DNA from: Nitrosopumilus sp.
GTDB taxonomy: Archaea > Thermoproteota > Nitrososphaeria > Nitrososphaerales > Nitrosopumilaceae
Assembly: GCA_965219345.1 (NCBI GenBank)
Contig: OZ244732.1
Location: forward strand, 1,760,001 to 1,824,000
DNA length: 64,000 nt
Reading direction: 5' to 3'
In this document: piece after piece, positions 1-47,128 of the stretch
Layout: each line of letters opens with the position of its first letter
Numbering within the stretch: position 1 is the first letter of the stretch
The notes under the pieces: generated by a model
Database searches by the model: none
Told to the model about the DNA's origin: nothing
Seen by the model: only the letters and a program-made list of their open reading frames with translations
Program-made: the position numbers and the translations under genes

Positions 1-29
1 TAATTAACCCCATTTAACAATTAGACATA

Positions 30-194
30 ATGGGTACAAAATATGCTCTGATTGACATGTTTTCTGGTGCCGGATGTGCATCTTTAGGATTTCAAAAGGC
101 AGGATTTGAAATTGCCGCTACCTTAGAAATCAATCCAAAACGCTGTAATGTATATGAAAAAAATTGTCAAAGAATCAATAAGATGTATTTTTGA
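30..194 (+). pseudogene. 5' fragment of a C5 cytosine DNA methyltransferase
   Basis: Hand translation from ATG 30: MGTKYALIDMFSGAGCASLGFQKAGFEIAATLEINPKRCNVYEKN..., i.e. motif I (IDxFSGxG) and motif II. It stops at 194, long before the PCQ motif. Confidence 0.8.
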
Positions 195-541
195 ATCACA
201 ACAAAAAAATGGTTTATGGGCAAAATCAAACCCGATCTTTGTTAGTCCAAAAAGGGGAAATGTGTATTCACTTGCATTTGAAATGCTTGATGTGCTTTTT
301 TTACCACCAAAATATGCCAAAACATTCACTGGGTATCTTGATAATCTTCAATCTATCATTGATTGGATATCAGACAAAACTATAAACTACAAAAAAGAGA
401 AGAATGACATTTGTGGCTGGAGATCAAATCATATTGCCAATCCAAAAGGATCCCCTATTTCATGGAGTACTGCGATCGTTTTCAACACGATGTTTAAGAT
501 ACAAAGCTTTGTAGCACTATTGCTTAACGAAGCAATTGTTA
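148..541 (+). pseudogene. Upstream part of a split AAA+ ATPase gene (alpha-toroid/prenyltransferase-like segment)
   Basis: QQKNGLW and GWRS..SWSTA motifs. The frame reads LLNEAIV up to the AGCAATTGTTA repeat and resumes in frame after the second copy at 10741. Confidence 0.65.
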
Positions 542-608
542 GTACGCTGGTACCTTGGCGGGTGTTTTGCATGAAATCTCAATTAGTGTTACTTTAGTCG
601 GGTGCCAG

Positions 609-809
609 CTAAATCATGTTTAATTCCTTGAGAATTTCTTCAAGTTTCGACCAGATTTCTTTAGGGCATTCTTTTTCATATTTTCCACTATGCCAAGATT
701 TACGTGTTGTAGTTCCATGAAATCGTTTAATCTCTGCAATCCAACAATCCTGAATCATAGGTTTTTTGTATCGTTTTTCATAAATTTTTCTAGCTTCATC
801 ATAAGTCAC
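609..809 (-). CDS. Small basic protein resembling the stand-alone C-terminal domain of some RlmD/TrmA RNA methyltransferases
   Basis: TY..A...Y...Y.....CWIAEIKR..G...R......CP......E..L....MI pattern. Confidence 0.55.
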   Translation of the reverse strand: MTYDEARKIYEKRYKKPMIQDCWIAEIKRFHGTTTRKSWHSGKYEKECPKEIWSKLEEILKELNMI

Positions 810-842
810 AAATACTTCTAAAAATCAACTAAATAAAAGAAT

Positions 843-1003
843 TTAGGAAATTATCTTGAACCAACAACGATCCTTGCCATTAGACAACCACGCAAATTTG
901 TACAGTCTTAGAATGTTATTTATCTTACGCCATACTTTTTTATCAGTCCATATCTCGGGCATAATCTTGATGAATCTCCTTCATTAACTATAGTTACTCC
1001 CAT
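843..1003 (-). pseudogene. Second copy of the C-terminal tail of the IS6-type transposase
   Basis: VTIVNEGDS/IKIMPEIWTDKKVWRKINNILRLYKFAWLSNGKDRCWFKIIS* (one frameshift) aligns with VTIINESDSIKITPKTWIDKQIWREINDILRLHEFSWLSNGKDSCWLKMNS* at 3430-3590. Confidence 0.75.
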
Positions 1004-1038
1004 ACGAAACCATCTCTTATCAGGTTTTATTCTTCCCC

Positions 1039-2337
1039 CTACATTTCTGAGATTTTAGTAACTTTCCAGTCTGCTCGTCTTTCCCAATTTGAAGGCAATT
1101 TTGCTACCATGAACTGAATTTTGGTTTTCTTAAGGAATTTCCTTGCATCAGGTTCTATGTTTTTGGTTGTTGTGACAAACCAAAAATTAAATGATGTCAC
1201 CCCTGTTTTTGATTCATTTTTTTTAATTTCTGTTGATTTTGTCAGAAAATAATCCAATTCATCTTTAGTAATCTTTGTGTTATTGCGTTTAAGCTTGCAT
1301 TCACAGATCACAACTTCTCTATTTTTTCTTGAACCCCTTTCTCCAAAAATGTCAATCTCTTTTTCTAAGTAATTTGGAACAAGTCTCGTAGTTGTGTTAT
1401 AATGTTCATAACTGCGTAAATATTCTGAAATGGCATCTTCAAAAATTCGTGCCAGCACATTTTCATATGAATATAGCCCTTTTCCAAAGGATGATTCCTG
1501 GGAAACTTCTTTAGATGTTTCTGGTTTTTTTATACTTGTTTGTTTTTGGATATCCCAGATTCTTTTATCAAATCCTTCTATGTATCCAATAAACTCCTTC
1601 TTCCAAGATAAATTTTTTACATCTTTTAGTAGCTCTTTACTTCCTTTTAGGAATCTACGTTCACTAAATTTTTTTTGCAACATCTTCCAATTTTTTCTCT
1701 CTTTTCTGCTATTCCGTGATTCAATGAACGGTTCCATAAATCTGCCAGTCAATTTTCCGCTTTTTGTAACACTTAACTCTATGGCATCAAAAAAATCATC
1801 AACTACTTCAAAAATTTCTGTTTTATAACTAAAATTTGTTCCAAAATTAATTACGGTGATGTGACTATGTACTCCTGATTGTATTTCATTTTTAAATTCT
1901 TGGGCTGTTTTATAAAATAATTTGTATTTTTTCTCTTCAAAATCAAAGAGTTTATGACTCACTTGTATATGTTCGTTAATCCTTAGATATCCATCAGGAA
2001 ACACAAGTGGTAAATATGGTTTAGCATTGTAGTTAAGATAAACTCGGTAGATTTTCCCGTTGGTTTTTTTAACATAACCTAGATCGGTTAGATTATTTAA
2101 TGCCGTTATCTCTTTATCAGGTATTTTGGTTTTGTTACGATACTTTCCATCTTTTTTTATCTGTTCAGCAACTTTTGGATCTTTTAACTGAGTATCCGAA
2201 AGCATCTCCCTTGGAATCTCATCGTGTACTATTTCTACCTGAATTGTTTTTCTTTTCATTAGTCTGCGCCATACATCTGAAATTGTTTTCTTCTGCTCTT
2301 TTGAGAGTTTCATATCAAGGTGTTTTTTTCCAGCCAC
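1039..2337 (-). CDS. Protein with C-terminal PD-(D/E)XK restriction-endonuclease-like (Mrr-like) domain
   Basis: FE..I..YL...EIDIFG...VICECK...ELDYF...FWFVTT motif set; N-terminal ~280 aa not recognised. Confidence 0.7.
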   Translation of the reverse strand: MAGKKHLDMKLSKEQKKTISDVWRRLMKRKTIQVEIVHDEIPREMLSDTQLKDPKVAEQIKKDGKYRNKTKIPDKEITALNNLTDLGYVKKTNGKIYRVYLNYNAKPYLPLVFPDGYLRINEHIQVSHKLFDFEEKKYKLFYKTAQEFKNEIQSGVHSHITVINFGTNFSYKTEIFEVVDDFFDAIELSVTKSGKLTGRFMEPFIESRNSRKERKNWKMLQKKFSERRFLKGSKELLKDVKNLSWKKEFIGYIEGFDKRIWDIQKQTSIKKPETSKEVSQESSFGKGLYSYENVLARIFEDAISEYLRSYEHYNTTTRLVPNYLEKEIDIFGERGSRKNREVVICECKLKRNNTKITKDELDYFLTKSTEIKKNESKTGVTSFNFWFVTTTKNIEPDARKFLKKTKIQFMVAKLPSNWERRADWKVTKISEM

Positions 2338-3136
2338 TTAACTTTTCAGGAAAATCATTTGAGATTTCTTGAGCAAGGTGCATGACATTAAGGAATACAC
2401 AAGCAGTAGAATAAGAATTATTTTTGCCAATCCAAACATGGATCCGATAAAATTTGACAGTAGAAAAAACCAGCTCAGATTTGACAGACGTTATACGAAA
2501 CCTTTTCCATCCTGTAATGTGTCATTATTGCTGGGACTGAGAGTCGAAGTATTATTGCCATGTACAAGTACCTTGTAGACTGACTCAAAAGACCAATTGC
2601 GTAATTATTAACAAAAACACATAATTTTCAATTGCACTGATCTCCCATCTCATGGAATCACAATAGAATGTGGTAAATTTTGGTGATAAACACTCAGACA
2701 CAGTTTTAGGATCTTTTCTGAGTTAAGATTTTGTAACTTTGCAAGTATTTTGTATGCAAATAAAATCAAAAAATAGAGGATTCAGTCAAGATTACACCAA
2801 AAGGTTGAATTGACAAGCAGATTTGGAGAGAAATAAATGATATTTTAAAACTTTACAAATTTAGCTGATTATCAAATGGAAAAGATAGTTGCTGGCTTAA
2901 ACTAGTTATTTAAGTAACAATTAAACCAGAACCATTTGAATCATTAATACTTTTTCCTTCGTATTTGTTTACTTGGATTATTGATTTGATTTTACCGTCA
3001 CCTTTTCTTAGGTTAGGATGAATGACACGACTTGTATCTACTATTTGTTTAGAGCCGTCAGTATTTTCCATAATCTGGTTAATTACTAGTTACATATAAT
3101 TCTAAAAATCTCAATACACTGTTCAATCACCCTAAA

Positions 3137-3235
3137 TAGACCTTATGCATAATTGATTAATTTTCAGCTAAAAAATTTGGATCACCCTAAAAATCACGCA
3201 TTTCTAATTTAAAATTAGATTACGCATAAGGTCTA
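3137..3235. repeat. 99-bp MITE-like unit with 17-bp terminal inverted repeats
   Basis: TAGACCTTATGCATAAT (3137-3153) vs ATTACGCATAAGGTCTA (3219-3235), 16/17 complementary; no coding capacity. Confidence 0.55.
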
Positions 3236-3429
3236 ATGAACACCTTGTTGAAAATTGGGAAAACCACATGCTAGAGTATGTAATTAAGGTGTTGAGAAAT
3301 TATGGAAGTGGTTCGTGCCCTCTTTTATATCCTGAGAATTTATGATACTCATAATCCGTTAAAGGGGTTTAACGTCCACATTTACAAAATGTTTTCATGT
3401 TTTCAATTAATAACACATGTACAAAAAGA

Positions 3430-4449
3430 TTAAGAGTTCATCTTAAGCCAACAACTATCCTTTCCATTGGATAACCAGCTAAACTCATGTAGTCTTAGAA
3501 TGTCATTAATTTCTCTCCAAATTTGCTTGTCAATCCATGTTTTAGGAGTTATTTTGATAGAATCACTTTCATTGATTATGGTTACTTTGCCGATTCTCTT
3601 TCCCAAGTTGTTTGCAAAGTTTGACTTTGTTCCAGTTGCTTTATCAAATCTATATACTTGTCATCGCCTAGTTCCAAATCAATTCCAGCCACTTCAGCTG
3701 AGGTTTTGCCATCCAATCCATGATGTGGTTTGACAAAGTTATGGTTTATCTTCAACAACTCTGAGAATGTCTGAGCTAATTCATCATTACCCAATTCACG
3801 TCTGGTCTTTAGTCTTTCCCTTATCTCATTATGGTATCTCTTTATGGGCCTGTTGACAAACCCATCCTTTATCGACTTGGTTTTAACATGTGCAACCCTG
3901 CTTTCAAATTCCTTTCTGATTGCCTCTTAATAGGAGTTTAAGGAATCAGTCAAGACGTAATTGGGATTTTTTAATATTCGTTTTTTGCCACTTGATATTA
4001 TTTTTCTTGCATCTGCAATCTCTCTTTTCTTTGAGACTTCTATTGCTATGAGAAATCGGGTCTTTGGATCAATGATGTTCTACAGCCATACATGAAATCC
4101 TTTTGCCATCTTTTCTGTATCCTTGACGTTTAGAACCATTTCATCAATAGGCCTTGGTAAATGTAGTAGAACTGTACTTTGGGCAAAAGTATGTCAGATT
4201 GTCAAATCTCTCTATGTTTTTCTTGGCAAATTCTTCTTCTCTATACCTCACACATGTTTTGATATGATAGCAGTATCTTTTTTTCCCATTGCTTCTGGCA
4301 ATGTGATGGTGAAAATATTTGCAGCCACAATACCAGATGTTACTTTGTGGCACTCTCTGAACCATATGATGTCTTGTAGGATCAGACTTTGAATCTACTC
4401 CGAATCTGTGTTTTGTTATCTTTGTTACCATGTCTGCATATTCCATCAC
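3430..4449 (-). pseudogene. IS6-family (DDE) transposase with N-terminal SWIM-like Zn finger, disrupted
   Basis: WYCGCKY..CYH SWIM motif; IDEMVLNV, IDPKTRFLIA, LTDSLNSY, NRPIKRYHN, NHNFVKPHHGLDGKT. Frame break near 4144, in-frame TAA at 3927-3929, frameshift near 3630. Confidence 0.85.
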
Positions 4450-4568
4450 GGTCTCGCTTACAACGCTTTATTTTCTATTCATTATACTTTATTGGCAGTA
4501 TAACTATAACATGAAGTTAGTTTCTCTAAAAAGTATAACTTTATTGTATGTGTTGGATATGTCTAGAT

Positions 4569-4790
4569 ATGGGATCCCGCAATTTGAAAAATACCAAGGA
4601 CAGGGATTATCTATATTATGTAATCGCAGAAAATGGAAAAAAAGGCACACACTATTGTGGTTTGGCATCCAAGCCAGAATCAGAAAAAAAGGCATTGGAA
4701 CTAGAACTGTTGGAGCTCAGGGAACAAGGTAGACAAATAACAAAAAAAATGGAGGTCATAAAGAGCAAGATATCCAAAATCAAATCTTAA
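4569..4790 (+). CDS. Small basic protein divergent from the transposase (beta-hairpin plus coiled coil; putative element-encoded DNA-binding/accessory protein)
   Basis: K..KDRDYLYY....GKK..HYCG motif followed by a heptad helix. Confidence 0.55.
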   Translation: MGSRNLKNTKDRDYLYYVIAENGKKGTHYCGLASKPESEKKALELELLELREQGRQITKKMEVIKSKISKIKS

Positions 4791-4819
4791 TACCGTAATT
4801 TGATCCGTCAGACATGATC

Positions 4820-5086
4820 TTATTTGGATTTTAGCATGCAGCCAATTTTTTTTCCACTGCGGGTGAGTGCATATAATCTACCTTTTCTTGATTTTGGATT
4901 TATGCATGTGACTAGATCTCGTTTTGCTAGTTCTGATAAAGTGTGACTTACATGACTTGAATAGTATTTTGTCTGTTCTGCTATTTCTTTAGGGCACAAA
5001 TACTCATCTTTTAGCGCAAGGATCACATTTTTCCTATATCTGCTGGCTTTGACAAAACCTAGGATCTCTGGTATGGTCTTTTCCAT
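4820..5086 (-). CDS. Winged helix-turn-helix regulator (ArsR/MarR-like)
   Basis: PKEIAEQT..YSSHVSHTLSEL...LV.C......KGRLYALT..G. Confidence 0.85.
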   Translation of the reverse strand: MEKTIPEILGFVKASRYRKNVILALKDEYLCPKEIAEQTKYYSSHVSHTLSELAKRDLVTCINPKSRKGRLYALTRSGKKIGCMLKSK

Positions 5087-5226
5087 GTATCTATCTTGTA
5101 GTTATCTCATGACTGCCTTTTTCGATTATTACAGGTTAGCTACAAAATATATACAATTTACATACAAGATTTTTAATTGATCATAATATCTTCAAAATTC
5201 ATCGCAGTATTTTCTCAAGTGGGGGG

Positions 5227-7725
5227 TTGCTTTTGAAAAAGAAGGCAAAATCAGAATCAGTCGATCAGTATACTCACAGTAATGAAAAAAGGCCGAATAA
5301 TCCTCCAGTTGGTCTTGTAACGCCTGGAACTGATCCTGATCAACCAAGCAAAAAATATTCATATGATCCAAGATTGGATCCACAGCTACAGTGGTCTGGA
5401 AAACAAGAAAATTCAGAGTTTGAAGTAGATACCGTATCTTTACACGTACATGAAAGAATAGATCCTCTTACAATTCTTGAAAAAGCAATGAAACCAAAAC
5501 AGTCAACACAGCAAACCATGTTTAATTATTTTGAAACTCCAGGAAATAATCCTCCATTGCGTGAAGCAATTGATTTTTACAAACATGATCAAAATTGGTC
5601 GAATCGATTGATTGCAGGAGATTCCTTACTGGTAATGAATTCGCTTTTAGAAAAAGAAGGAATGGAAGGAAAAGTACAGATGATCTATATGGATCCCCCC
5701 TATGGCATCAAGTACGGTTCGAATTTTCAACCATTTGTAAACAAGCGAGATGTCAAAGATGGCAAAGATGAAGATCTTACGCAAGAGCCAGAAATGATTA
5801 AGGCATTTAGAGACACTTGGCAGCTTGGAATTCATTCATATTTATCATATTTACGTAATCGTTTATTTTTATCACATAGATTGCTTACTGATTCAGGAAG
5901 TATTTTTATACAAATTTCAAACAAGAATATGCATCTAATAAGAATTATTTTAGATGAAATATTTAACCCACAAAATTTTTGTGGGATAATTTATTATAAA
6001 ACTAAAGCAAGTCCACAACAAGTTCAAACTATTCCTCAAATGGGAGATTTTATTTTATGGTATGCAAAAAATAAACAAAATATCAAAGTTAAAAATCTCT
6101 ACATACCAAAACAAATGGATGAAGAAATAAAAAAAGAATTTGGATTGATTGAGCTTGAAAATGGAGAAATAAAGCACGCCAAAGAATTAAATTGGAAAAT
6201 TCCAAACAATTCTAAAATTTTCCGAACTCAATCGATTTTAACAGCTAGACAATCAGAAGATAGAAATTTTAGTTTCGAAATTGCTGGCAGAGTAATAAAG
6301 CCTCCTATAAATTATTCTTGGGCAATTGATAAAAAAGGCATGAATAATCTTTTAATGCAAAACAGACTTTTAGATAGAGATGCAACATTTAGGCTTTATA
6401 AACAATATTTTGATGATTTTCCATATGTTTTAAGATCAAATTTATGGTTAGATGCAATGGGTGCAATTGATAAAATATATGCAGTCCAAACGTCTGATAA
6501 AATTATTCAAAATTGTGTGTTGATGACTACTGATCCTGGAGACTTAATTTTGGATCCTACATGTGGTTCAGGCACAACAGCATTTGTTGCTGAACAAACT
6601 GGAAGACGATGGCTTACTTGTGATTCATCACGTGTTTCTATCACAATTACTAAAAAAAGATTAATGACTTCGATATACCCGTATTACAAATTAAAATCTA
6701 CATCTCTAAAGGATGGATTTATTTACAAAGAAATTTTACGCAAATCATTAAAAACTATCGCATCAAAAGAATCACCTGAAATCATTATTTTGTATGATGA
6801 ACCTAAAGCTGATCTTTCTAAAAAAAGAATTTCTGGGCCATTTACCGTAGAAGCAGTACCTTCCCCAATTGCTAAATCACTTGATGTTTTATCAGAAGAT
6901 GACTCAAAATCAAATTCTAGCATCTCTACAAATAATAAAAATTCACAGCAAGAACAATGGCGAGATGAATTACTAAAGACAGGAATCAGAGCCAAAGCTG
7001 GTCAGAAGATAGAATTTAGCAGAGTTGAAACGCATCCAGCAACTAAATGGCTTCATGCAGATGCAGAAACAAAGGAAGACAAACCAAAACGAGTAATGAT
7101 ATCTTTTGGTCCTGAACATGCACCACTAGAACAACGTCAAGTCGCACTGGCAATAGAGGAAGCTCAAACTCTAGTTCCAAAGCCAAAGATGATAATCTTT
7201 GCTGCAATGCAGTTTGATCCCGAAGCTGCAAAAGACATTGATGAGCTAAGCTGGCCTGATGTTACCATGCTAAAAGTAGAGATGAACAAGGATCTACTCA
7301 CAGCGGATCTGAAAAAGAAACGCGTAAGCAATGAATCATTTTGGCTTATGGGACAGCCAGATGTGGAACTGCGAAAAACCAAAGATGTAAAATACATCAT
7401 AACAGTAAATGGCTTTGATTATTACAATACGAGAACTGGCGAGGTTGAATCCGGTAGTTCATCTAAAATTGCAATGTGGATGCTAGACACTGATTATGAT
7501 GGAAGAAGTGTCTATCCACAACAGGTATTTTTTCCAATGGAAGAAAAGACTGGAGGATGGAGCAAGCTTGCCAAAACCTTACAGGCTCAAATTGATGAGG
7601 AGTTAATTACAAAATATCAGGGAACTGAATCCATACCATTTGAAGCAGGATCAAACAAGAGGGCAGCTGTAAAGATTATTGACGACAGAGGAATCGAATC
7701 ACTAAAGATCATCAGGCTGGAATAA
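5227..7725 (+). CDS. mod: Type III restriction-modification methyltransferase (Mod, beta class)
   Basis: QMIYMDPPYG catalytic motif before LILDPTCGSGTT SAM motif; stop overlaps the res start (TAATG). Confidence 0.92.
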   Translation: MLLKKKAKSESVDQYTHSNEKRPNNPPVGLVTPGTDPDQPSKKYSYDPRLDPQLQWSGKQENSEFEVDTVSLHVHERIDPLTILEKAMKPKQSTQQTMFNYFETPGNNPPLREAIDFYKHDQNWSNRLIAGDSLLVMNSLLEKEGMEGKVQMIYMDPPYGIKYGSNFQPFVNKRDVKDGKDEDLTQEPEMIKAFRDTWQLGIHSYLSYLRNRLFLSHRLLTDSGSIFIQISNKNMHLIRIILDEIFNPQNFCGIIYYKTKASPQQVQTIPQMGDFILWYAKNKQNIKVKNLYIPKQMDEEIKKEFGLIELENGEIKHAKELNWKIPNNSKIFRTQSILTARQSEDRNFSFEIAGRVIKPPINYSWAIDKKGMNNLLMQNRLLDRDATFRLYKQYFDDFPYVLRSNLWLDAMGAIDKIYAVQTSDKIIQNCVLMTTDPGDLILDPTCGSGTTAFVAEQTGRRWLTCDSSRVSITITKKRLMTSIYPYYKLKSTSLKDGFIYKEILRKSLKTIASKESPEIIILYDEPKADLSKKRISGPFTVEAVPSPIAKSLDVLSEDDSKSNSSISTNNKNSQQEQWRDELLKTGIRAKAGQKIEFSRVETHPATKWLHADAETKEDKPKRVMISFGPEHAPLEQRQVALAIEEAQTLVPKPKMIIFAAMQFDPEAAKDIDELSWPDVTMLKVEMNKDLLTADLKKKRVSNESFWLMGQPDVELRKTKDVKYIITVNGFDYYNTRTGEVESGSSSKIAMWMLDTDYDGRSVYPQQVFFPMEEKTGGWSKLAKTLQAQIDEELITKYQGTESIPFEAGSNKRAAVKIIDDRGIESLKIIRLE

Positions 7726-10583
7726 TGTCTGGCATTGAAAACCTCATAATTTGTAACCCGTATAAAATGCCCTCATATCACTGGAAGTATGATCGTACGA
7801 ATAGAAAGTTTGATCTAGTATCAGACAGAAGGCCAGCAGGATTTCTTATTGCATCAGAAGACAGCAAGACATTTGATGATCCTGGGGAATTCAGAGAGTT
7901 AGAACTAGTAAACAGGATACGAGAGAAAGTCGATAGTTGGAGAGCAAAAGACTATCCAAATGTTACGGGAATTACAAAGCAGCTGCTCCGATTTTGGCAC
8001 GATGGAACAAAACGAGAAAACAAGTTCTTTTTTTGTCAGCTAGAGGCAATTGAGACTTTAATCTGGCTGGCAGAAGCATCTGATGCAGAAAAACAGGGAA
8101 TACAAATTCCATCTGATGGCGGTTTGTTTCAAAGGCTGTGTTGCAAGATGGCAACAGGAACAGGCAAGACAATTGTAATGGCAATGCTGATTGCATGGCA
8201 GGTAATCAACAAAGTAACCTATCCACAAGACACACGGTTTTCAAAAAACATTTTGGTCATGGCGCCAGGACTCACTGTAAAATCAAGATTACAGGTTTTG
8301 TTTCCCACAAATGCGGATAATTCTTATGACATGTTTTGTATAATTCCAGAGTCATTTTATGAGAAATTATTTCAAGGCAAATTCACCTTACATAACTGGC
8401 ACACATTAATGCCCGAAGATGACGCGCCAAGAAGCGTTGTAAAACTAGGCAAAGAAAGCAATGGTATCTTTTCAAGAAGAATTCTAGGACATGATTCCAA
8501 AAACATCATTGTCATAAATGACGAGGCACATCATGCGTATCGCGCAAATGTTGATCAGGCATCCAAGATATCAAAAACAGAGCTAGAACGTGACAAGCGA
8601 TGGATTGAAGGATTAGACAAGATACACGATGCACGAAACATTGTAAAATGCTTTGATTTTTCTGCAACCCCATTCATACCATCAGGAAAAAATGTAACTG
8701 AGGATACGTTGTTTGAATGGATTGTATCAGATTTTTCATTAAATGACGCAATTGAATCCGGACTGACCAAAACGCCTAGAATTGCAATCAGGGACGATGG
8801 TGGCAAATTCTCCAAGGAATATCGCTCCAGATTTTATCACCTGTACAGAGACGATGAGGTAAAGCCAGATCTTAACAGAAATGCAAAACCGCATGAAAAG
8901 TTGCCTGACTTGATATCTAATGCATATTTTCTTTTGGGTCAGGACTGGATTGAGACAAAAAAACTATGGGATAAACAAGGATCAAAGATTCCACCTGTAA
9001 TGATTACCGTATGCAACAAGACGCAGACTGCAGCTAGAGTCATGTATTCATTTGAGAAAAACAAATTTGGATTAGAAGAGCTCTCAAATCCTGAGCACCT
9101 GCTGCACATTGATTCAACTACAATAAACAAAGCAGAAGAGCAAGAATCTGCCGGATCCGAATCAGACGAGGCAGAAGGCCTCAGAGAAAAGGTAGATACT
9201 GTAGGCAAGATAGGCAGGCCAGGCGAGCAGATCAGAAACATCATTGCAGTACAGATGTTATCAGAAGGATGGGATGCAAGAAATGTCACCCACATTATGG
9301 GTCTGAGGGCGTTTTCTAGTCAATTGTTGTGTGAGCAGGTAGTGGGCAGGGGATTGCGAAGAACATCATATGAAATCGACTCTGATAAGGGATTATTCTC
9401 ACCAGAATATGTCAATGTGTTTGGTGTGCCATTTACCTTCTTGCCTCACGAGGGTGGAGAGGGAACACCACCGCCCCCAACTCCACATACTATGATAGCG
9501 CCAGATCCTGACAAGGCAGAACACAAGATCTCTTGGCCAAACATTGACAGAATCGATGTGGATTTTTTACCAAAGCTTACAGTTGACTGGAAGAAAATAA
9601 AACCACTAGAGCTGCGAAGCGACGGTATTGCTACAAGTGTAGGAATGGCTCAGGTTTTGGATGGAAAGCCACATGTAGATAAAATGTCAGAAATTGATCT
9701 GTACGAGTTAAACAAAGAGATAAGACTGCAACGGATAATCTTTCTTGCCGCAAAAGATGTCTATGACAGCATGTCTCCTAACTGGAAAGGAAACAAGGAA
9801 TTTCTTCTAATACAAGTTGTAAAGCTAGTTGAGGAGTTTATCTGTTCATTTCAGATCAACGTAGTTGATGTCTCTGATGATGACCTGCGAACAAAGATGA
9901 CCATTATGTTTAACATGCAAAAGGTCGTAGCTCATGTCTGTAAAAGCATTACAGATTCTAATGTGGAGAAAAGACAGATTCATCTCAATTCAAACAAGCC
10001 AATAAAGTCTACATCCGATATGCGTCCATGGAATACAAAAAAGCCTGCTGAATACACTGTAAAATCCCACATCAACATGGCAGTGTACGATTCAAAATGG
10101 GAGATTGGCACAGGGCAAGAATTAGAGAGAAACAAAAATGTGGTATCTTGGGTAAGAAATGATCATATCGGCTTTGTGATAAGGTATCTGTATAACGGAA
10201 TCATACATGACTATTATCCAGATTTTTTAATTCATTTAGAGAATAATGTTACCTTGGTTTTGGAGATAAAGGGAGTGGATGATAACCAGAACAAGGAAAA
10301 ACGCAGATATCTAGCAGAATGGATAGATGTGGTAAACGAGAATGGAAGTTACGGAACATGGACATGGGATGTTGCGTTTCATCCAAGCGAGGTACGGGGA
10401 ATAATTGCAGATCATGGCAAGACGAGGGTCTCTGCCAATGAATATGCAAGATGTCCCAAATGTGGTAAGGATGCCAAATCAAGGCAGGAGATTGACAAAG
10501 AGTTTGGGTTTAGGAATATGGATGGGATGAGTAGACCTCAATCATGGTGCAGGAATTGCAGAAAAGGCATAACTGTTGCATAA
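7725..10583 (+). CDS. res: Type III restriction endonuclease (Res) with C-terminal Zn-ribbon
   Basis: KMATGTGKT, INDEAHH, FSATP, LSEGWD, QVVGRGLRR helicase motifs; YYPDF..LEIKG nuclease; CPKC..CRNC tail. Confidence 0.92.
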   Translation: MSGIENLIICNPYKMPSYHWKYDRTNRKFDLVSDRRPAGFLIASEDSKTFDDPGEFRELELVNRIREKVDSWRAKDYPNVTGITKQLLRFWHDGTKRENKFFFCQLEAIETLIWLAEASDAEKQGIQIPSDGGLFQRLCCKMATGTGKTIVMAMLIAWQVINKVTYPQDTRFSKNILVMAPGLTVKSRLQVLFPTNADNSYDMFCIIPESFYEKLFQGKFTLHNWHTLMPEDDAPRSVVKLGKESNGIFSRRILGHDSKNIIVINDEAHHAYRANVDQASKISKTELERDKRWIEGLDKIHDARNIVKCFDFSATPFIPSGKNVTEDTLFEWIVSDFSLNDAIESGLTKTPRIAIRDDGGKFSKEYRSRFYHLYRDDEVKPDLNRNAKPHEKLPDLISNAYFLLGQDWIETKKLWDKQGSKIPPVMITVCNKTQTAARVMYSFEKNKFGLEELSNPEHLLHIDSTTINKAEEQESAGSESDEAEGLREKVDTVGKIGRPGEQIRNIIAVQMLSEGWDARNVTHIMGLRAFSSQLLCEQVVGRGLRRTSYEIDSDKGLFSPEYVNVFGVPFTFLPHEGGEGTPPPPTPHTMIAPDPDKAEHKISWPNIDRIDVDFLPKLTVDWKKIKPLELRSDGIATSVGMAQVLDGKPHVDKMSEIDLYELNKEIRLQRIIFLAAKDVYDSMSPNWKGNKEFLLIQVVKLVEEFICSFQINVVDVSDDDLRTKMTIMFNMQKVVAHVCKSITDSNVEKRQIHLNSNKPIKSTSDMRPWNTKKPAEYTVKSHINMAVYDSKWEIGTGQELERNKNVVSWVRNDHIGFVIRYLYNGIIHDYYPDFLIHLENNVTLVLEIKGVDDNQNKEKRRYLAEWIDVVNENGSYGTWTWDVAFHPSEVRGIIADHGKTRVSANEYARCPKCGKDAKSRQEIDKEFGFRNMDGMSRPQSWCRNCRKGITVA

Positions 10584-10741
10584 AACATGATGCAAAAAAA
10601 TCAACAGTGGTTCAAGATAGTCCAATCTTTCGAAACCCTATAGAACCGTATTTGTTATTCAAAGATGTTAAAGAATCTCACTTGATCCCTGAAAACACCC
10701 TAACTTGACAAAGCAGTAAAAACTCCCACTAAGTTAACAGA

Positions 10742-11649
10742 GCAATTGTTAAAGAATTCAATGGAAGATTTGCATCCAGTCTAACAACTAACGGCATAGA
10801 CAAAATCAAAGATTCTAATGTCATGATCAAAGACAAGGAAACGGGATTAAAGAATATCATAATGGAGAACATGATCAATCCCAGATCAGATGGATACAAG
10901 GGAGTCAAGGAACCATTGTACTCAGCGATTTTTTTGGCCCTCCTAATACTAGCAAAACTAGCTTGGCAGAAGCTATATCTTCTGTTCTTGGATAGAATTT
11001 CATCAAGTTTCAATCAGGAGGTTTCCTTACGGACGGCATCCAGAAAGCAACGGGTAGAGCCAGATACGTCTTTGACAGACTACTGCATTTGGAAGACACA
11101 GTTGTGTTGTTTGACGAGATTGAAGGGTTTGTAAGATCAAGAGAACCAGGTAAAGAAGGAGAAAAACCAGAATTAGACAACAGGATGCTGACAACATCCA
11201 TGTTGATTCTTATCAATGATCTAAGACGTAAAGAAAAAATAATTTTCATCGTAGCAACAAATTATTTTGAAGGTTTTGATTCGGCTGTAAAAAGACCAGG
11301 CAGGTTTGACATGATATTACATGTAGGCCCGCCCCACAAGGCATCAATGAAGGAAGTTGCAGAAGAGTTCCAAGGTAAGAAAAAACTTGGTGAAAATGTG
11401 GATCTGGAAATCGTCAACAAAATCATAGATGAGGAATACGATAACAACCTAGAATATTTTACATACGGCGAATGGACGTTTTTATTGAAAGAGTTGAACG
11501 AGGAGATGGAGAATGGATTAGACATACAAGACGTTGAAAAAAGGTGCAGGGAGATGGTCAAGGATAAATTCAGGTCAACAATTTTGTCTGACGAAAAATT
11601 AAAAGAAAGATATGATGAAAACAAGGGTAAGTCGAGGGCAAGAGGATAA
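10742..11649 (+). pseudogene. Downstream part of the split AAA+ ATPase gene
   Basis: AIVKEFNG... in frame with 148-541. After a frameshift in a T run (~10930): degenerate Walker A GPPNTSKT, premature TAG at 10993-10995, Walker B VVLFDEIE, ATN, and SRH DSAVKRPGRFD. Confidence 0.85.
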
Positions 11650-11653
11650 GCAA

Positions 11654-12184
11654 ATGACAATCAATTGTACAGTGTCAGGAAGTTTCAACAAACATTTGAA
11701 CTTAGTATTTGACAAGATAAAGGAACTTGAAAAAAACGGCATTGCAGTACTGTCTCCCAAAATAAATCCAACTGTACGAAAAACAGATGATTTTGTCTAT
11801 CTAGAAGGAGATGTAGGATCACCAAGAGAAATTGAGCTCATGCACCTAGATGCAATCTCGAGAAGTGATTTTCTATACGTGGTAAATCCAAAAGGATATG
11901 TTGGAAAGAGCACCTTACTTGAAATAGGATTTGAGTTGTCAAAAGGAATCAGAATATTTTCTAGTGACAAAGTGACGGATACGCCATTTAACGAGATTGT
12001 GATGCATGCACCAAATATTTCAGACATCAGAAATGAGATTGCGGATTGCCTCACATACCTGATTGATTTGGCCAATCTTGCAAACGTAAACCTGCAGGAT
12101 GCTTTCATGGAAAAAGAAAACATCAACAAAGACAGAACATGGGGAACTAAGAAAGATATCCAACGACTAACGACAGAGGAATAA
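11654..12184 (+). CDS. Nucleoside 2-deoxyribosyltransferase-like domain fused to a partial MazG-like pyrophosphatase domain
   Basis: SGSF..H, HLDAISRSDFLYVVNPKGYVGKSTLLEIG (NDT/TIR-like fold); C-terminal EIADCLTYLIDLANLANVNLQDAFMEKE.IN..R.W (MazG C-terminal half). Confidence 0.7.
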   Translation: MTINCTVSGSFNKHLNLVFDKIKELEKNGIAVLSPKINPTVRKTDDFVYLEGDVGSPREIELMHLDAISRSDFLYVVNPKGYVGKSTLLEIGFELSKGIRIFSSDKVTDTPFNEIVMHAPNISDIRNEIADCLTYLIDLANLANVNLQDAFMEKENINKDRTWGTKKDIQRLTTEE

Positions 12185-12441
12185 AATGGAAACAAAAAGA
12201 TTTGCAAAAAAGGAATCAGGGAACATATAAAAAAAAATTGAGATAAAAATCCCTTGGAGAGATTTATGAAATTAGTTTAACACTCTAAGATCTTAGAGAC
12301 TTGAACCAATCATACAATTCCCCTAATGCGAACCGAGTCTTCACAAATCCAAACATTTATGGCACATTTTAACTCACTAAATACCGATTGGTTTGCACGC
12401 CAACAAACCTAGAGGGATAGCAATGTTATTCCTCTAGGACA

Positions 12442-14328
12442 TTACATTCTATCAGGTGCAACTATACCTAAAAGATCTAATGCTTTTTCAATAGTAATTT
12501 TAAAAGAATCCACAATGCAGAGACGAGAATTCTCTAATGATTCATCTCCTAATTCTAAAACCTTGACATGCTCATAAAATGAATTGAATGATACAGCCAA
12601 ATCATGACAATATCTTGCAATGACTTTGGGAGATAAATTGTTTGTAGCATCACGAACATGTATATCAAATAGGCCAATTGTTTTAATCAAATCTAATTCA
12701 GATTGTTCTTTGAGTAAAGAAAAATCAACGTCAATAGATACAGTACGTTCAGATTTTTCTAAAATTCTAACAGCTCTTGCATGTGTATATTGTATGTATG
12801 GTGCAGTGTCACCGTCCAAGCTAAGTGACTTTGTTAAATCAAATGCAATAATTTTATCCAAATCTTGTTTTATCATCTCATAACGCAAAGTGCCAACTGA
12901 GACATTATGAGCAATTTTTTCAATCTCAGATGAATCCATTTTAGGATGTCTTTTAGTAGTTTCCTCAATTGTTTTCTTTTTTAACAAATCATACACAGAA
13001 TCAGCATTGACATAAAGTCCCTTTCGTCCCGACATTTGAGCTTGCTTCCCATCAGTATTCAGTCCAAGAATTTTTGCAGTCTCAGAACTAAGAGTAACTG
13101 ATTCATACCCAAGATGAACATATGCATCTGGAATTGATTTGAATTTCCCCATCATAAAAGTAATGATTTTTTGTAATCTTGCCTGACGGGAATCAATTAC
13201 AGTGATGACTTTATCTCCAGTAAAGTTCTGAGATGACGAATCACTTTCATTTAGGCTAGTCTGCCACAATACTCGAGAATTAGGTTGTTTTTTTTCATAT
13301 TTTTCATAATGAAATGGATCATCTAGTAATCCCAGTTTCCACGCAGCATATGGAATGTCTTTGGCAATGTAGGTAGCAGTTCCATTACTTCGCACAATTA
13401 CCTTGTCTTCTTTTTTACCATCACCACGAATTACCCAGCATCTCGCATTCTTACCTTCATTTTCAAATTCTATTAGGCTCATTTCTTTTAATTTTTCAAA
13501 GATTTTACTCCATAATCCTGAACGAATAATCTGAGATTCAAAATTAAGACAATCATAAGAAACTGACAAATTCCAACATGTTTCTAGCTGATTTGCTAAA
13601 ACTTTGCGTGTAATGGTATCGGCAAATTTTGCAGTTTCAGAATTTCCATCCTCAAGTTCTTGTAAAACATTTTTTCTAATCTCTTCAAGACTAGAATCAG
13701 ATTCATATTTTTCTGTGGTTTTGACATATACGTCATCACCACAATAATGATCAAACTTCTTTCCATCAGGTGGTTCTGGATCAAATCCTAAATGTTTGAA
13801 TCCAACTATAATATCAGCTACTTGAAGACCAGAATCATCAACATAGTTTAGAACATTAACTTTGTAGTTTGCTTTTTGCAAAATTCGTGAAATGCAATCT
13901 CCAATGATAATATTTCTAACATGTCCTATGTGTAAAGCCTTGTTAGGATTTACACTTGTATGCTCTACTACAATTGTAGAATTTTTTCCAATATCAACAT
14001 CACCAAATTCCGGAAGATGAGCCTCAGCTAGAATTAAGTGGTTTAGTTTTTCCCAATTAGCAAAGAAATTCAAGTATCCTGATGGATGTGCTTCTGATTT
14101 TAAAACAAGTGTACTAGAACAAGAATCATATTTTTCAGATAACATTTCAGCAATATCTTTTGGGTTTTTTTTGAGTTGTTTTGAAAGTAAAAATGAAACA
14201 TTTGAGCTAACATCACCAAAACCAAGTTTTGCAGGTTCAACAGTGAATTTTACATCAGATATTGAAAGGTCTCCAAGTATCTTGTTAAGGTTATTTTCAA
14301 TTTCATCAATAATTGATTTGAATGTCAT
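12442..14328 (-). CDS. argS: Arginine--tRNA ligase
   Basis: VEHTSVNPNKALHIGH (HIGH), MSGRKG, DALR-type YIQYTHAR. Confidence 0.97.
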   Translation of the reverse strand: MTFKSIIDEIENNLNKILGDLSISDVKFTVEPAKLGFGDVSSNVSFLLSKQLKKNPKDIAEMLSEKYDSCSSTLVLKSEAHPSGYLNFFANWEKLNHLILAEAHLPEFGDVDIGKNSTIVVEHTSVNPNKALHIGHVRNIIIGDCISRILQKANYKVNVLNYVDDSGLQVADIIVGFKHLGFDPEPPDGKKFDHYCGDDVYVKTTEKYESDSSLEEIRKNVLQELEDGNSETAKFADTITRKVLANQLETCWNLSVSYDCLNFESQIIRSGLWSKIFEKLKEMSLIEFENEGKNARCWVIRGDGKKEDKVIVRSNGTATYIAKDIPYAAWKLGLLDDPFHYEKYEKKQPNSRVLWQTSLNESDSSSQNFTGDKVITVIDSRQARLQKIITFMMGKFKSIPDAYVHLGYESVTLSSETAKILGLNTDGKQAQMSGRKGLYVNADSVYDLLKKKTIEETTKRHPKMDSSEIEKIAHNVSVGTLRYEMIKQDLDKIIAFDLTKSLSLDGDTAPYIQYTHARAVRILEKSERTVSIDVDFSLLKEQSELDLIKTIGLFDIHVRDATNNLSPKVIARYCHDLAVSFNSFYEHVKVLELGDESLENSRLCIVDSFKITIEKALDLLGIVAPDRM

Positions 14329-14422
14329 CTTATATCTCAGATAATTTAGGTGCTAATTTATCTAATGGCGTAATGATTCGTAATTGTTTTACAATCACTG
14401 TGCCTAGATTAGATTGATAATT

Positions 14423-14545
14423 ATGATAAATGCGTGGATTGATGCTAAAATGCTATTTCCAATTCATACAGAACATCCTACTGAATATATGCGAGTAACA
14501 AACAAGATCAATATTGTTAAATTGAACAAAAAATATGAGATTTAG
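14423..14545 (+). pseudogene. 3' remnant of an MBL-fold/beta-CASP hydrolase
   Basis: IDAKMLFPIHTEHP...VKLNKKYEI* resembles the RNA-metabolising MBL C-terminal PxHxEH motif; the rest of the gene is missing. Confidence 0.6.
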
Positions 14546-15041
14546 AATGGTTAAACAAGAAAATTACAATATTGTTTCAGAAGCAATTGTAGAAGAACTT
14601 CTAAAAAAAGAGTACGGGGACAAAGTAAAAAAAATTAGTGGAACTGGTGCTGGAAAAGTAGGCGATTTTAAAGTTGGACAAAAAATAATTGAAGTTAAAG
14701 GGTCGTGGTCTGATGAGTCTGGGAAAAAAGATGATGAATTTGATTTTGTTTCAAGTGGTTTTGACGTTTCTGATAAAGAATGGGAAATCATTGAAAATAA
14801 TTCAAAAAATTTTGAATTATGGGTTGTTTATAGATTAAATAGAACGCATAAAGATGTAAAAGGTTGGCCTGTAAGATATGCTATTCTAAGTGGAACAATA
14901 TTAAAAAAATGTAAACATACTTTTCCCAAAGTAAGATTACACATTCTAAAAGAGTTATGGAAAGAATCTGATCAAGAAGATGTACCAAAAAAAATTTTAA
15001 CTAAACATATAAACAAAAAGAAAAAAAAGACAATCAGATAA
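14535..15041 (+). CDS. PD-(D/E)XK nuclease-like protein (DUF3883/NOV-like); probable start at ATG 14547
   Basis: SE..V...L, GDFKV...IEVKGS, S.KEWE.....FELWVV. Confidence 0.6.
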   Translation: MRFRMVKQENYNIVSEAIVEELLKKEYGDKVKKISGTGAGKVGDFKVGQKIIEVKGSWSDESGKKDDEFDFVSSGFDVSDKEWEIIENNSKNFELWVVYRLNRTHKDVKGWPVRYAILSGTILKKCKHTFPKVRLHILKELWKESDQEDVPKKILTKHINKKKKKTIR

Positions 15042-15042
15042 C

Positions 15043-15291
15043 TCAGTCATTTATTTTTCTGCAAATTTTTTTGATTCCCTTTATTCCTATTCCAATAAAA
15101 TTATCATCAATTCCAAATCTCTCAAAAATTCTTCTCAAGAAATAACTTCTAGCAAATGAAACTGTAGCATAAACAAAGGTGATTGCTAAATTTGCAACAA
15201 GTGGATCTTCTTTAATCCAGCCCATTGATATAGACCTATTGAGGTTATACGTGAGTATCGTACCTATAAATTTGAAAATTTTTGTGTTCAA
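15043..15291 (-). CDS. Small membrane protein, possibly 5'-truncated
   Basis: NLAITFVYATVSFARSYFLRRIFE hydrophobic helix with RSY..RR.F motif. Confidence 0.45.
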   Translation of the reverse strand: MNTKIFKFIGTILTYNLNRSISMGWIKEDPLVANLAITFVYATVSFARSYFLRRIFERFGIDDNFIGIGIKGIKKICRKIND

Positions 15292-15336
15292 GAAACAGAA
15301 ATCATTCTGACTGTCTTTATTCCCAAGGAAGTCTCC

Positions 15337-16140
15337 ATGTATATCATGCCCTTCAAAAATTATTCTCCAAATTTAAAAATTGAATTACAAGATGGAAAAC
15401 CATCTCCTATTTTTTCCTATAAAGAACTACATAGAATACTAGGAAGAGAATTCACTTTGGATGAAATTAGAGGATTATGTGCTGAAAGTTATGGTTTAGA
15501 TAAAAAAGAATTTGAAATATACACTAATTTTGGAATAATTTTATTTCCTGATCATGAAGATCATATTAATGAAATAAAAATTACGTATCTTGAACCTGGA
15601 GAATTAGAAAAAGATACTTCTTTCTTTCTCACAAAAAATGTAAAATTTTCACATAGATTTTTGCCTGCTGATAAATCTAGTCTTTATGTTTCGGTAAATG
15701 TGAATGACAAATATGAAATCGAAAAAGAACCCACAATCTCAAAAATTAAAGAAGAACATTATGGATTCGATAATACTTCAGTTGCTGAAAATTATGAACC
15801 TATTGATTCCAAACCTCACGTTATTTTAGACGATAAGAAACATAACGTTTTGAATTTTCCAAGAAAATTTTCTGATGAAATAAAAATTGATTACAGAATT
15901 AAAATTCCTCAGATGGTTATAGTTTGGCTTTGGTTTGGTTTTTTTATTGGTGTAGGAACCATATTTTTCACTATTTTTGCTTCTATTCAAAATTACCCTG
16001 TAGCTTTGGGAGGTATTGGTGTGTTGATTGGTCTCAGAATTATGTTATTTCATGATGTAGAATTACTTGATAGATGGAATTGGGCTTACTTGATTTTAAT
16101 TGCTTTGAATATCATAGTTTTAGGATTAGTTTTGTTATGA
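15337..16140 (+). CDS. Hypothetical protein with three C-terminal transmembrane helices
   Basis: 267-aa ORF with hydrophobic C-terminal third; very AT-rich. Confidence 0.7.
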   Translation: MYIMPFKNYSPNLKIELQDGKPSPIFSYKELHRILGREFTLDEIRGLCAESYGLDKKEFEIYTNFGIILFPDHEDHINEIKITYLEPGELEKDTSFFLTKNVKFSHRFLPADKSSLYVSVNVNDKYEIEKEPTISKIKEEHYGFDNTSVAENYEPIDSKPHVILDDKKHNVLNFPRKFSDEIKIDYRIKIPQMVIVWLWFGFFIGVGTIFFTIFASIQNYPVALGGIGVLIGLRIMLFHDVELLDRWNWAYLILIALNIIVLGLVLL

Positions 16141-45846: not shown

Positions 45847-47128
45847 TTTCCATTATAGAAACATTACGCTGTTTTCCATCTTGAGAAGTAAGGGAGTCAG
45901 ACGAAATTCTTACATCACTAACAAAATAACCAACTGAATCCATTCTTTTAACAATCATTTGAGATACATCAACTGCTTGCGTGATTCTTTTTCCTCTAGC
46001 CTTGATAGTGACAGTGTGTCTTGTTGATAATTGAGTTAAGGTTGCAGAAACATAAGTCATAATTGGTTTAGTACCAACAAAAATTGTATCTCGTTCTTCT
46101 GATTTTTGGGGGGAGTCTGAAGTTTCGCTAGAAGGTATTTCATGTTCTGGTTCAGGTGTTGGTTCTGGTTCAGGTGTTGGTTCTGGTTCTGGTGTTGGTT
46201 CTGGTTCAGGTGTTGGTTCTGGTTCAGGTGTTGGTTCTGGTTCAGGTGTTGGTTCTGGTTCAGGTGTTGGTTCTGGTTCAGGTGTTGGTTCTGGTTCAGG
46301 TGTTGGTTCTGGTTCAGGTGTTGGTTCTGGTTCAGGTGTTGGTTCTGGTTCAGGTGTTGGTTCTGGTTCAGGTGTTGGTTCTGGTTCAGGTGTTGGTTCT
46401 GGTTCAGGTGTTGGTTCTGGTTCTGGTTCAGGTGTTGGTTCTGGTTCAGGTGTTGGTTCTGGTTCTGGTGTTGGTTCTGGTTCAGGTGTTGGTTCTGGTT
46501 CAGGTGTTGGTTCTGGTTCAGGTGTTGGTTCTGGTTCAGGTGTTGGTTCTGGTTCAGGTGTTGGTTCTGGTTCAGGTGTTGGTTCTGGTTCAGGTGTTGG
46601 TTCTGGTTCAGGTGTTGGTTCTGGTTCAGGTGTTGGTTCTGGTTCAGGTGTTGGTTCTGGTTCAGGTGTTGGTTCTGGTTCAGGTGTTGGTTCTGGTTCA
46701 GGTGTTGGTTCTGGTTCAGGTGTTGGTTCTGGTTCAGGTGTTGGTTCTGGTTCTGGTTCAGGTGTTGGTTCTGGTTCAGGTGTTGGTTCTGGTTCAGGTG
46801 TTGGTTCTGGTTCAGGTGTTGGTTCTGGTTCAGGTGTTGGTTCTGGTTCAGGTGTTGGTTCTGGTTCAGGTGTTGGTTCTGGTTCAGGTGTTGGTTCTGG
46901 TTCAGGTGTTGGTTCTGGTTCAGGTGTTGGTTCTGGTTCAGGTGTTGGTTCTGGTTCAGGTGTTGGTTCTGGTTCAGGTGTTGGTTCTGGTTCAGGTGTT
47001 GGTTCTGGTTCAGGTGTTGGTTCTGGTTCAGGTGTTGGTTCTGGTTCAGGTTGTTCTTGAGGTTTAGTTCGAGAATCAAATTCTGATAAAATATCTTCTG
47101 CGTCTTTTGATTTTTTAGAGTCACTCAA
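45827..47128 (-). CDS. albA: Alba-domain protein with a very long acidic (PEPEPT)n N-terminal extension
   Basis: C-terminal [12 protein letters not shown]...[15 protein letters not shown]...RNVS.MEI Alba signature. Confidence 0.9.
46145..47052. repeat. ~50 copies of the 18-bp repeat TTCTGGTTCAGGTGTTGG
   Basis: Directly visible; two 6-bp insertions (~46421, ~46751) and two synonymous variants (46190, 46466). Confidence 0.97.

Follow-up and report, generated by a model that had tools for sequence, protein, structure and literature searches.

How does a complete restriction-modification (R-M) system come to lie inside a single gene of an ammonia-oxidising archaeon? The question is raised by a 64,000-nucleotide stretch of DNA from Nitrosopumilus sp. 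(contig OZ244732.1, positions 1,760,001 to 1,824,000 of the forward strand; hereafter the window), near the start of which a segment of 10.2 kb separates two parts of an AAA+ ATPase gene. Ammonia-oxidising archaea have a major part in the nitrogen cycle, and, to our knowledge, little is known about the movement of defence genes in them. We found that the segment, at positions 543-10744, is on balance probably a non-autonomous cargo transposon related to the insertion sequence (IS) family IS6, which moved as a unit into the ATPase gene. A first-pass annotation of the window had proposed an IS6-derived, cargo-carrying transposon within one gene. Our analysis supports this proposal, as the terminal repeats belong to a family that makes 8-bp duplications and is tied to transposases of the DDE_Tnp_IS240/IS6-like type.

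The interrupted gene consists of two pieces.

148-542, plus strand: upstream piece, encoding the last part of the N domain (alpha/alpha-toroid-like) of a toroid-AAA+ ATPase (64% identity to residues 231-358 of the homologue P0001)
10751-11649, plus strand: downstream piece, linker and AAA+ module, with a frameshift and a TAG codon (window translations; Pfam AAA 4.4e-12; identity to P0001)

In the window translations, the last residues of the upstream frame, up to 540, are ...LLNEAIV, and KEFNG is read from 10751. The in-frame joining of these two ends upon removal of the insert, as stated in the first-pass annotation, was borne out by the frames and by alignment with the homologue. When the 131-aa upstream piece was used as a query for longer proteins, two relatives were found among 97 candidates, both with an AAA domain: P0001 (656 aa, 64% identity) and P0002 (482 aa, 41% identity). 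The match of the upstream piece to P0001 has an E value of 6e-57 and ends at residue 358; the piece from 10751 aligns to residues 360-419 (40% identity), with K at residue 359, and the last piece aligns to residues 441-656 (63% identity). The break point in homologue numbering is residue 358|359. P0002 and a 774-aa protein from a member of the genus (G168) are also uninterrupted across this point, and a 663-aa bacterial homologue (L031) gave one continuous match to P0001 residues 21-654, in which the residues at the break were not read. Because the homologues are contiguous at the exact junction, we regard the split of the gene as real; the position counts here, not the repeat itself. In addition, contigs of four runs from one study bridge both junctions of the element. 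An orthologous empty site was not found, as no relative of the host N domain was present among 60 relatives. In the 150 other genomes of the genus, the upstream piece matched only the gene in G168 (35% identity, intact at 774 aa), which is not syntenic evidence.

The first-pass annotation had relied on an 18-nt repeat (524-541 and 10734-10751) and on imperfect inverted ends just inside it, and both were found as described. The repeat copies agree at 16/18 positions and share an exact 11-mer on the 3' side, and 547-568 matches the reverse complement of 10719-10740 at 17 of 22 positions. The 18-nt repeat alone is not above chance in AT-rich DNA: the first 12.5 kb contain 94 exact 11-mer direct pairs, compared with 44 ± 9 in shuffles, and six pairs of at least 16/18 at distances of 5-12 kb. 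At fixed positions, the chance probability is about 1.4e-6 for at least 17/22 matches and about 6.6e-4 for at least 7/8. We placed the tip of the element by aligning 15 termini, in which a conserved T stands four bases before C(T/G/C)G. By these family-defined tips the element spans 543-10744 (10,202 bp) and has imperfect terminal inverted repeats of about 60 nt.

535-542, no strand: left copy of the 8-bp target-site duplication, ATTGTTAG, flanking the family-defined tip (7/8 identical to 10745-10752)
543-605, plus strand: left terminal inverted repeat of the 'GGTACC' subtype, with two GGGnG-type subrepeats (model R1, 46.9 bits)
10676-10744, minus strand: right terminal inverted repeat of the long-spacer subtype, its tip including AGCA at 10741-10744 (model R1, 43 bits)
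10745-10752, no strand: right copy of the target-site duplication, ATTGTTAA, flanking the family-defined tip

The earlier length of 8 bp for the duplication stood, but not its register; AATTGTTA is one base off 535-542/10745-10752. Nor is the 18-nt repeat wholly duplicated host DNA, as had been supposed. It is the duplication plus the conserved right-end tip (..TTAACAGAGCA), the TTAAC..AGCA part of the right copy being transposon sequence. The alignment of the left end with the right end scored 40, compared with 18-24 for control pairings, and the right end contains CTGTT and the left end CTGGT. With filters off, model R1 scored in positions 1-13000 only at 543-605 and 10676-10744; both window ends were included in this model, and independent support comes from the BLAST and pattern results described below. 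To the left of the duplication, the host bases agree with the right tip at 9 of 11 positions. Target choice by such end mimicry was considered and set aside as a coincidence, because no such likeness was seen at the other four insertions bounded by duplications (flanks read by eye).

The same ends were found around other cargo, as the first-pass annotation had suggested looking for. By BLAST, a copy of the final 62 nt of the insert (10683-10744), at 96.8% identity, lies elsewhere in the same genome (G000:C1:1029186-1029247), with the same end base and other DNA beyond it; the first 62 nt or so (543-605) recur at 87% in G091, and window positions 530-854 recur at 72% in G163. A degenerate 22-mer derived from both ends was found at 45 places in 28 of the 151 genomes of the genus, compared with 9 for the reversed control, and a sequence model of the 15 termini (A2, R1) gave matches in 42 of the 151. 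A motif search allowing up to 4 mismatches was too noisy and was not used. Seven pairs of ends that bound an element were examined.

Window element: 10.2 kb, flanks ATTGTTAG / ATTGTTAA, 7/8
G159 element: 3.87 kb, flanks AAGTATTC, 8/8
G160 element: 2.85 kb, flanks ATACAGAG, 8/8
G130 element: 1.62 kb, flanks CAAAAATT, 8/8
G009 element: 3.45 kb, flanks AAAATTCT / AGAATTCT, 7/8
G163 element: 4.1 kb, no duplication
G163 element: 0.63 kb, no duplication

Five of the seven have 8-bp duplications, each at a different, unrelated target. The G159 element (L034, G159:C1:19729-23595) is autonomous and apparently active, judging from its sequence: its ends are identical at 60/60 positions with the tip GGTTCTGT, and it has an intact 380-aa transposase gene and two passenger ORFs, for a 306-aa SDH-type ClpP-like protease and a 180-aa protein without a family match. 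The tips are GGTTCTGT or GGCTCTGT in relatives from G159, G163, and G167; the GGTTCTGT tip of G159 and G163 is a GG tip. The G009 element carries a methyltransferase gene and a HicB-like gene. The 4.1-kb pair in G163 (L033, G163:C1:2444063-2448177) encloses a thymidylate-synthase-like gene, two UDG-superfamily genes, and a fragment of an rve-type transposase gene, a cargo that looks like a base-modification cassette. In G091 (L028, G091:C83), an ORF at 3935-4876 encodes a 313-aa protein of the PADLOC candidate defence family PDC-S18 (2.5e-100) and lies between a 442-aa transposase gene and a terminal repeat; for this transposase-plus-passenger unit, a left repeat was not found upstream of the transposase gene.

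A small ORF just inside the left end of the window element also recurs at three other places beside copies of this subtype of the terminal repeat.

609-809, minus strand: 66-aa ORF just inside the left terminal repeat (tblastn)

Its relatives by tblastn are at G000:C1:906365-906565 (47% identity; locus 906288-906565), in G163 (50%), and in G167 (79%, partial). It had no family match in Pfam, PADLOC, or NCBIfam searches and may be an accessory gene of the IS lineage.

The affiliation with IS6 comes from the transposase remnants inside the element and their intact relatives.

846-1051, minus strand: 3' fragment of an IS6-type transposase gene, corresponding to residues 382-442 of a 442-aa relative (tblastn)
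2779-2907, plus strand: second 3' fragment of a transposase gene, inverted relative to 3443-3564 (repeat I1, 122 nt at 80%; tblastn)
3439-4428, minus strand: IS6-type transposase pseudogene (tblastn with the G091 transposase; PF13610, 39.6 bits)

The pseudogene retains residues 14-116 (SWIM/Zn part) and 203-440 (DDE part), lacks residues 117-202, and contains one frameshift and two stops (one TAG and one TAA). It is 74% identical to the 442-aa transposase of G091 over residues 203-378 and passes the cut-off of Pfam DDE_Tnp_IS240 (39.6 bits against 27); the intact relatives from G091 and G159 scored 54.5 and 68.9 bits. The G091 transposase has a SWIM motif (by eye) and a Zn-binding N-terminal domain (NCBIfam IS1/IS1595 model). 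Transposases of this type are IS6-like and possibly form a distinct clade. As its internal transposase gene is a broken remnant, the window element is non-autonomous. The genome has 19 matches to DDE_Tnp_IS240, and because 11 of them lie in open frames of at least 337 aa, enzymes that could act in trans are available.

The internal IS remnant did not reveal ends of its own, as positions 3297-3432 have no similarity to the repeat family. This piece, about 100 nt long and lying immediately downstream of the transposase remnant, has copies of 71-92% identity in about 30 genomes, with 31 listed matches starting at 3297-3338. The copy in the same genome (G000:C1:745104-745193) is intergenic, lies beside a ribosomal-protein-like ORF (by eye), and abuts an IS6-type tip. 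The piece had no Rfam family and could represent flanking DNA that was captured, a site preferred as target, or a portion of the IS. Another repeat of about 110 nt, at window positions 2481-2589, recurs three times elsewhere in the genome at 79-81% identity (C1:72127-72239, 483775-483887, and 1486456-1486568).

The cargo was listed correctly in the first-pass annotation: besides the IS6-type remnants, it comprises a weakly Mrr-like ORF, a winged helix-turn-helix (HTH) gene, and the mod and res genes. The element holds at least five non-transposase ORFs, including the small ORF described above.

1039-2337, minus strand: 432-aa ORF with a weak Mrr-like restriction-endonuclease C-terminus (Pfam Mrr_cat_2 3.5e-4, 20.9 bits, below the cut-off of 22)
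4820-5086, minus strand: 88-aa winged-helix (ArsR-like) gene, divergent from mod (weak Pfam and NCBIfam HTH matches)
5227-7725, plus strand: mod, full-length Type III-like N6-adenine DNA methyltransferase gene, 832 aa (Pfam N6_N4_Mtase 2.4e-31; PADLOC MTase_III 1.3e-136)
7725-10583, plus strand: res, full-length SF2-helicase restriction subunit gene, 952 aa (NCBIfam NF046055; Pfam ResIII)

The mod/res pair appears intact by sequence as a Type III-like R-M system. The start of res overlaps the stop of mod at 7725, and 160 bp separate the res stop from the right tip. The Mod protein, whose DPPY motif is encoded at 5692-5703, is 59-69% identical to nine homologues in the genus, five of which have a complete ORF in the fetched locus (829-852 aa). 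The Res protein matches NCBIfam NF046055 (BPTD_3080 family restriction endonuclease) over profile positions 1-968 of 970 with 1006.6 bits against a cut-off of 800, and is 68-85% identical to nine homologues of 947-990 aa in the genus. Its PADLOC REase_III matches are weak (1.1e-11), and the nuclease motif was read by eye. The winged-helix gene is absent beside mod/res in the nine other loci of the genus, and the 432-aa ORF had no relative at the DNA level in the 150 other genomes. GC content is 0.38-0.42 at 7-11 kb, compared with 0.36 for the genome, which we count as a sign of foreign cargo.

A run of six C at 5695-5700, within the DPPY codons of mod, has one extra C in the contigs of two of the four runs (X8 and X11) and not in those of X9 and X10 or in the assembly. 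The extra C would shift the frame of mod and could reflect on/off variation or inactivation in culture.

If the element moved as a unit, the events may have been as follows. An IS6-type DDE transposase would have bound both ends, on the assumption that one enzyme served both subtypes; it would have been the element's own, before its decay, or a resident copy acting in trans. The whole unit, including the cargo, would have moved by the replicative cointegrate route known for IS6/IS26, and the cointegrate would have been resolved by recombination between the two copies. Insertion into codon 359 of the toroid-AAA+ ATPase gene would have duplicated 8 bp of the target, and the host gene would either have been inactivated by the insertion and then decayed, or have been decayed before it. 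Delivery as a unit is our inference. Read from the right end, the element consists of a terminal repeat, passengers antiparallel to the transposase gene, the transposase gene, and a terminal repeat, as in the 3.9-kb autonomous element of G159. We favour the unit move because of this shared architecture, because four other bounded cargo elements have duplications, and because no terminal repeats are present inside the element.

The explanation that we weighed most closely against the unit move is accretion in place, which we consider possible though not probable. By this account, the 8-bp duplication dates from the insertion of a small IS6-type element, and the R-M system, the nuclease gene, and the IS copies came later inside it, through nested insertion or through IS26-like targeted incorporation by a resident copy, with the internal ends later deleted. 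Targeted incorporation next to resident copies is a behaviour of IS26. Several observations weigh against a unit move, and some of them favour accretion. The two window ends are identical at only 40/60 positions and belong to different subtypes, whereas five other bounded pairs are identical at 47-60/60. The left end is closest to ends in G091, G163, and G009 (49-52/60; G091 52/60 and G163 50/60), and the right end to ends in G162, G160, and G130 (45-48/60). Given this mixture of subtypes, the element probably arose as a hybrid of two related elements. Its interior is rearranged and contains, besides other repeats, three fragments of transposase genes that lie in both orientations; its GC content is uneven, which also fits accretion. 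In a DNA search, we found 12 mod/res loci in 11 of the 150 other genomes; all of the matches stop at or before 10566, short of the right end, and no terminal repeats were found within flanks of about 1.5 kb at the nine loci scanned. We conclude from these two results that the R-M system moves within the genus but generally without a link to the terminal repeats, a further point in favour of accretion. The remaining difficulties concern the unit itself. Its duplication is 7/8 and not 8/8, its tips are TACG and TGCT and not the GG dinucleotide of IS6, and both G163 pairs lack a duplication. For the G091 transposase, the best NCBIfam model is IS6, but with 108.7 bits, below the cut-off of 125, and IS1 follows with 75.3. 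Finally, no second copy of the 10-kb unit was found: a metagenome scan with a 39-nt right-end stretch gave 0 stretches, and BLAST in the same genome gave only the 62-nt solo copy. However, no terminal repeats were seen inside the element even with filters off; all later arrivals would have had to land within an element of one to a few kb; and the four other bounded cargo elements with duplications, one of them autonomous, show that the lineage moves with cargo.

The first-pass annotation had also raised site-specific integration, in which the semi-palindromic 18-nt repeat (TTAAC-N9-GTTA) would be the attachment-site core for a recombinase. The repeat does reach beyond 8 bp, and the match at 9 of 11 further positions has a probability of about 2.5e-4 at a fixed position. 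However, no match to Phage_integrase (PF00589), and thus no tyrosine recombinase, lies within the element, all nine matches in the genome being elsewhere (serine recombinases were not searched by family). The extra bases on the right side are the conserved tip, which also occurs with other flanks in the solo copy of the same genome and at the right end of the G160 element. Moreover, the five related insertions lie in unrelated 8-bp targets, and the other four have no extension (flanks read by eye). We therefore regard a recombinase core as very unlikely. Still less credit can be given to a chance repeat between two unrelated ORFs or to a wrong join of the assembly at the repeat. Such 11-mers are common in this AT-rich DNA (94 pairs in 12.5 kb), but homologues contiguous across the exact junction and contigs bridging both junctions make this explanation practically negligible. 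The contigs of the four runs over window positions 1-12400 reported no empty-site or circle joint; since contigs drop rare variants, they are silent on excision.

Returning to the unit move, we consider next what it would mean beyond this locus. It is about an even call whether the window element belongs to an undescribed lineage, in ammonia-oxidising archaea, of IS6-related 'transporter' transposons with bipartite repeats of about 60 nt, SWIM/Zn-finger DDE transposases, and multi-gene cargo for conflict or DNA modification. The cargo of such a lineage would so far include the R-M system of the window, the SDH-type protease pair of G159, the methyltransferase and HicB-like genes of G009, PDC-S18 of G091, and the thymidylate-synthase-like gene and two UDG-family genes of G163. 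If this is true, its members would move as units or via resident copies in trans. This archaeal group would then have its first recognised DNA transposons with cargo, as well as a means for defence systems to pass between genomes. The window provides a base-resolved example of an IS6-type unit carrying a complete R-M system, and the related loci add an autonomous element, a model of the terminal repeats, and several target duplications, by which the family becomes searchable and testable. If the unit move is correct, small IS6-type transposons can ferry defence genes in ammonia-oxidising archaea.

The host gene itself needs correction, as the first-pass annotation had noted, and it has three lesions beyond the insertion. 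About 225-230 N-terminal residues are missing, the only match in the same genome spanning P0001 residues 224-359; there is a frameshift within the run of seven T at 10929-10935; and a conserved W is replaced by TAG at 10993-10995. The contigs of the four runs cover these sites with no listed differences. Two further genes adjoin the host gene.

30-194, plus strand: gene fragment for the N-terminal 54 aa of a C5 cytosine DNA methyltransferase (Pfam DNA_methylase 8.1e-10, covering profile positions 2-43 of 324)
11654-12184, plus strand: partner gene of the host module, encoding a short deoxyribosyltransferase-like and MazG-like protein (34% identity and E 6e-33 in a comparison with the gene that follows the bacterial homologue)

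The methyltransferase fragment runs into the start of the truncated host ORF, and we take it as a probable deletion scar. The host gene and its partner are conserved as a pair in two bacterial metagenome-assembled genomes (L031 and L032), one from Burkholderiales and one from Actinomycetes; the gene downstream of the bacterial homologue has Nuc_deoxyrib_tr and MazG matches, and one of the two pairs adjoins a phage-type integrase gene. The AAA+ part of this pair has an atypical P-loop, GPPxTxKT. The predicted toroid-like fold of the N domain (TM 0.55-0.62) can be taken as a lead only. The host gene had been called a probable defence gene, which goes beyond the evidence: in PADLOC, P0001 matches the IetA and TRIP13 models over the AAA module only (3.1e-16 and weaker), the partner has no match, and the two-gene module is not in that database. 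With PADLOC matches at the AAA level only, a defence role of the pair is possible, and the module may be an undescribed nucleotide-centred conflict system. The locus shows one defence-like island overwritten by another. Core genes flank the island, with ArgRS at 12442-14328 and housekeeping-looking ORFs upstream (by eye from translations). Scans of window positions 1-16000 and 1-13000 revealed no tRNA genes and no Rfam families. Farther away, positions 46001-47000 have a very odd composition in the 1-kb profile (GC 0.479, GC skew 0.53, AT skew -0.68).

Among known systems, the closest is the IS6 family (IS26, IS257, and archaeal clades). According to the consulted part of the IS6 review, these elements make 8-bp duplications and have 15-20-bp repeats, a GG tip, and cTGTt and caaa motifs; their lengths are mostly 0.7-0.9 kb, one family member has a passenger gene, and the ISfinder tree given there has no thaumarchaeal clade (PMC7986276). 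The window element and its relatives share with IS6, as described in that part, the DDE_Tnp_IS240-type transposase (in related elements), the 8-bp duplication, in part the CTGT(T) motif (with CTGTT at the right end of the window element and CTGGT at its left end), and, in some relatives, the GG tip. In contrast, the window element is 10.2 kb and not about 0.8 kb long, has bipartite repeats of about 60 nt instead of 15-20 bp, and has the tips TACG and TGCT; the simple organisation of IS6 (about 0.7-1.8 kb, with the transposase gene as the only gene) is not matched by its 10,202 bp. The transposases of the lineage differ further in their SWIM and Zn-ribbon N-termini and an extra C-terminal domain, and the cargo comprises several genes. 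The single IS6 member with a passenger gene in the consulted part of the review is ISDsp3, called a 'tIS' (PMC7986276). Compared by description, ISDsp3 is likewise an IS6-type element that forms one unit and encloses passenger DNA, but it has one hypothetical passenger, whereas the window element lacks a working transposase and carries an R-M pair together with a nuclease-like ORF and a regulator. In IS26 pseudo-compound transposons, as treated in the same part, IS6-type machinery also moves neighbouring genes, and the structure as a whole is flanked by an 8-bp duplication (PMC7986276). Those structures have two complete direct IS copies at their ends, whereas the window element is bounded by terminal repeats only; its left end has only the repeat, the small ORF, and the 3' transposase fragment, and no complete IS copy is present at either end.

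A 2019 survey of integrated elements treats the same host group, as the genome of the window encodes archaeal AmoA; the consulted portion of that survey reports that IS elements are abundant in Thaumarchaeota and that passenger-gene transposons were not yet detected in archaea, and its main text as consulted contains no instance of the whole word 'IS6' (PMC6563490). In the literature on ammonia-oxidising archaea we found no element combining an IS6 transposase and an R-M system, and the papers listed on transporter IS and passenger genes included no archaeal IS6 cargo elements. Cargo-carrying IS6 elements are almost undescribed. Mobile insertion cassettes, in which terminal repeats surround passenger genes and are mobilised in trans, have been described for other IS families in bacteria. 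By analogy, the window element resembles such a cassette, as it is bounded by terminal repeats, contains passengers and no functional transposase gene, and could possibly be mobilised in trans.

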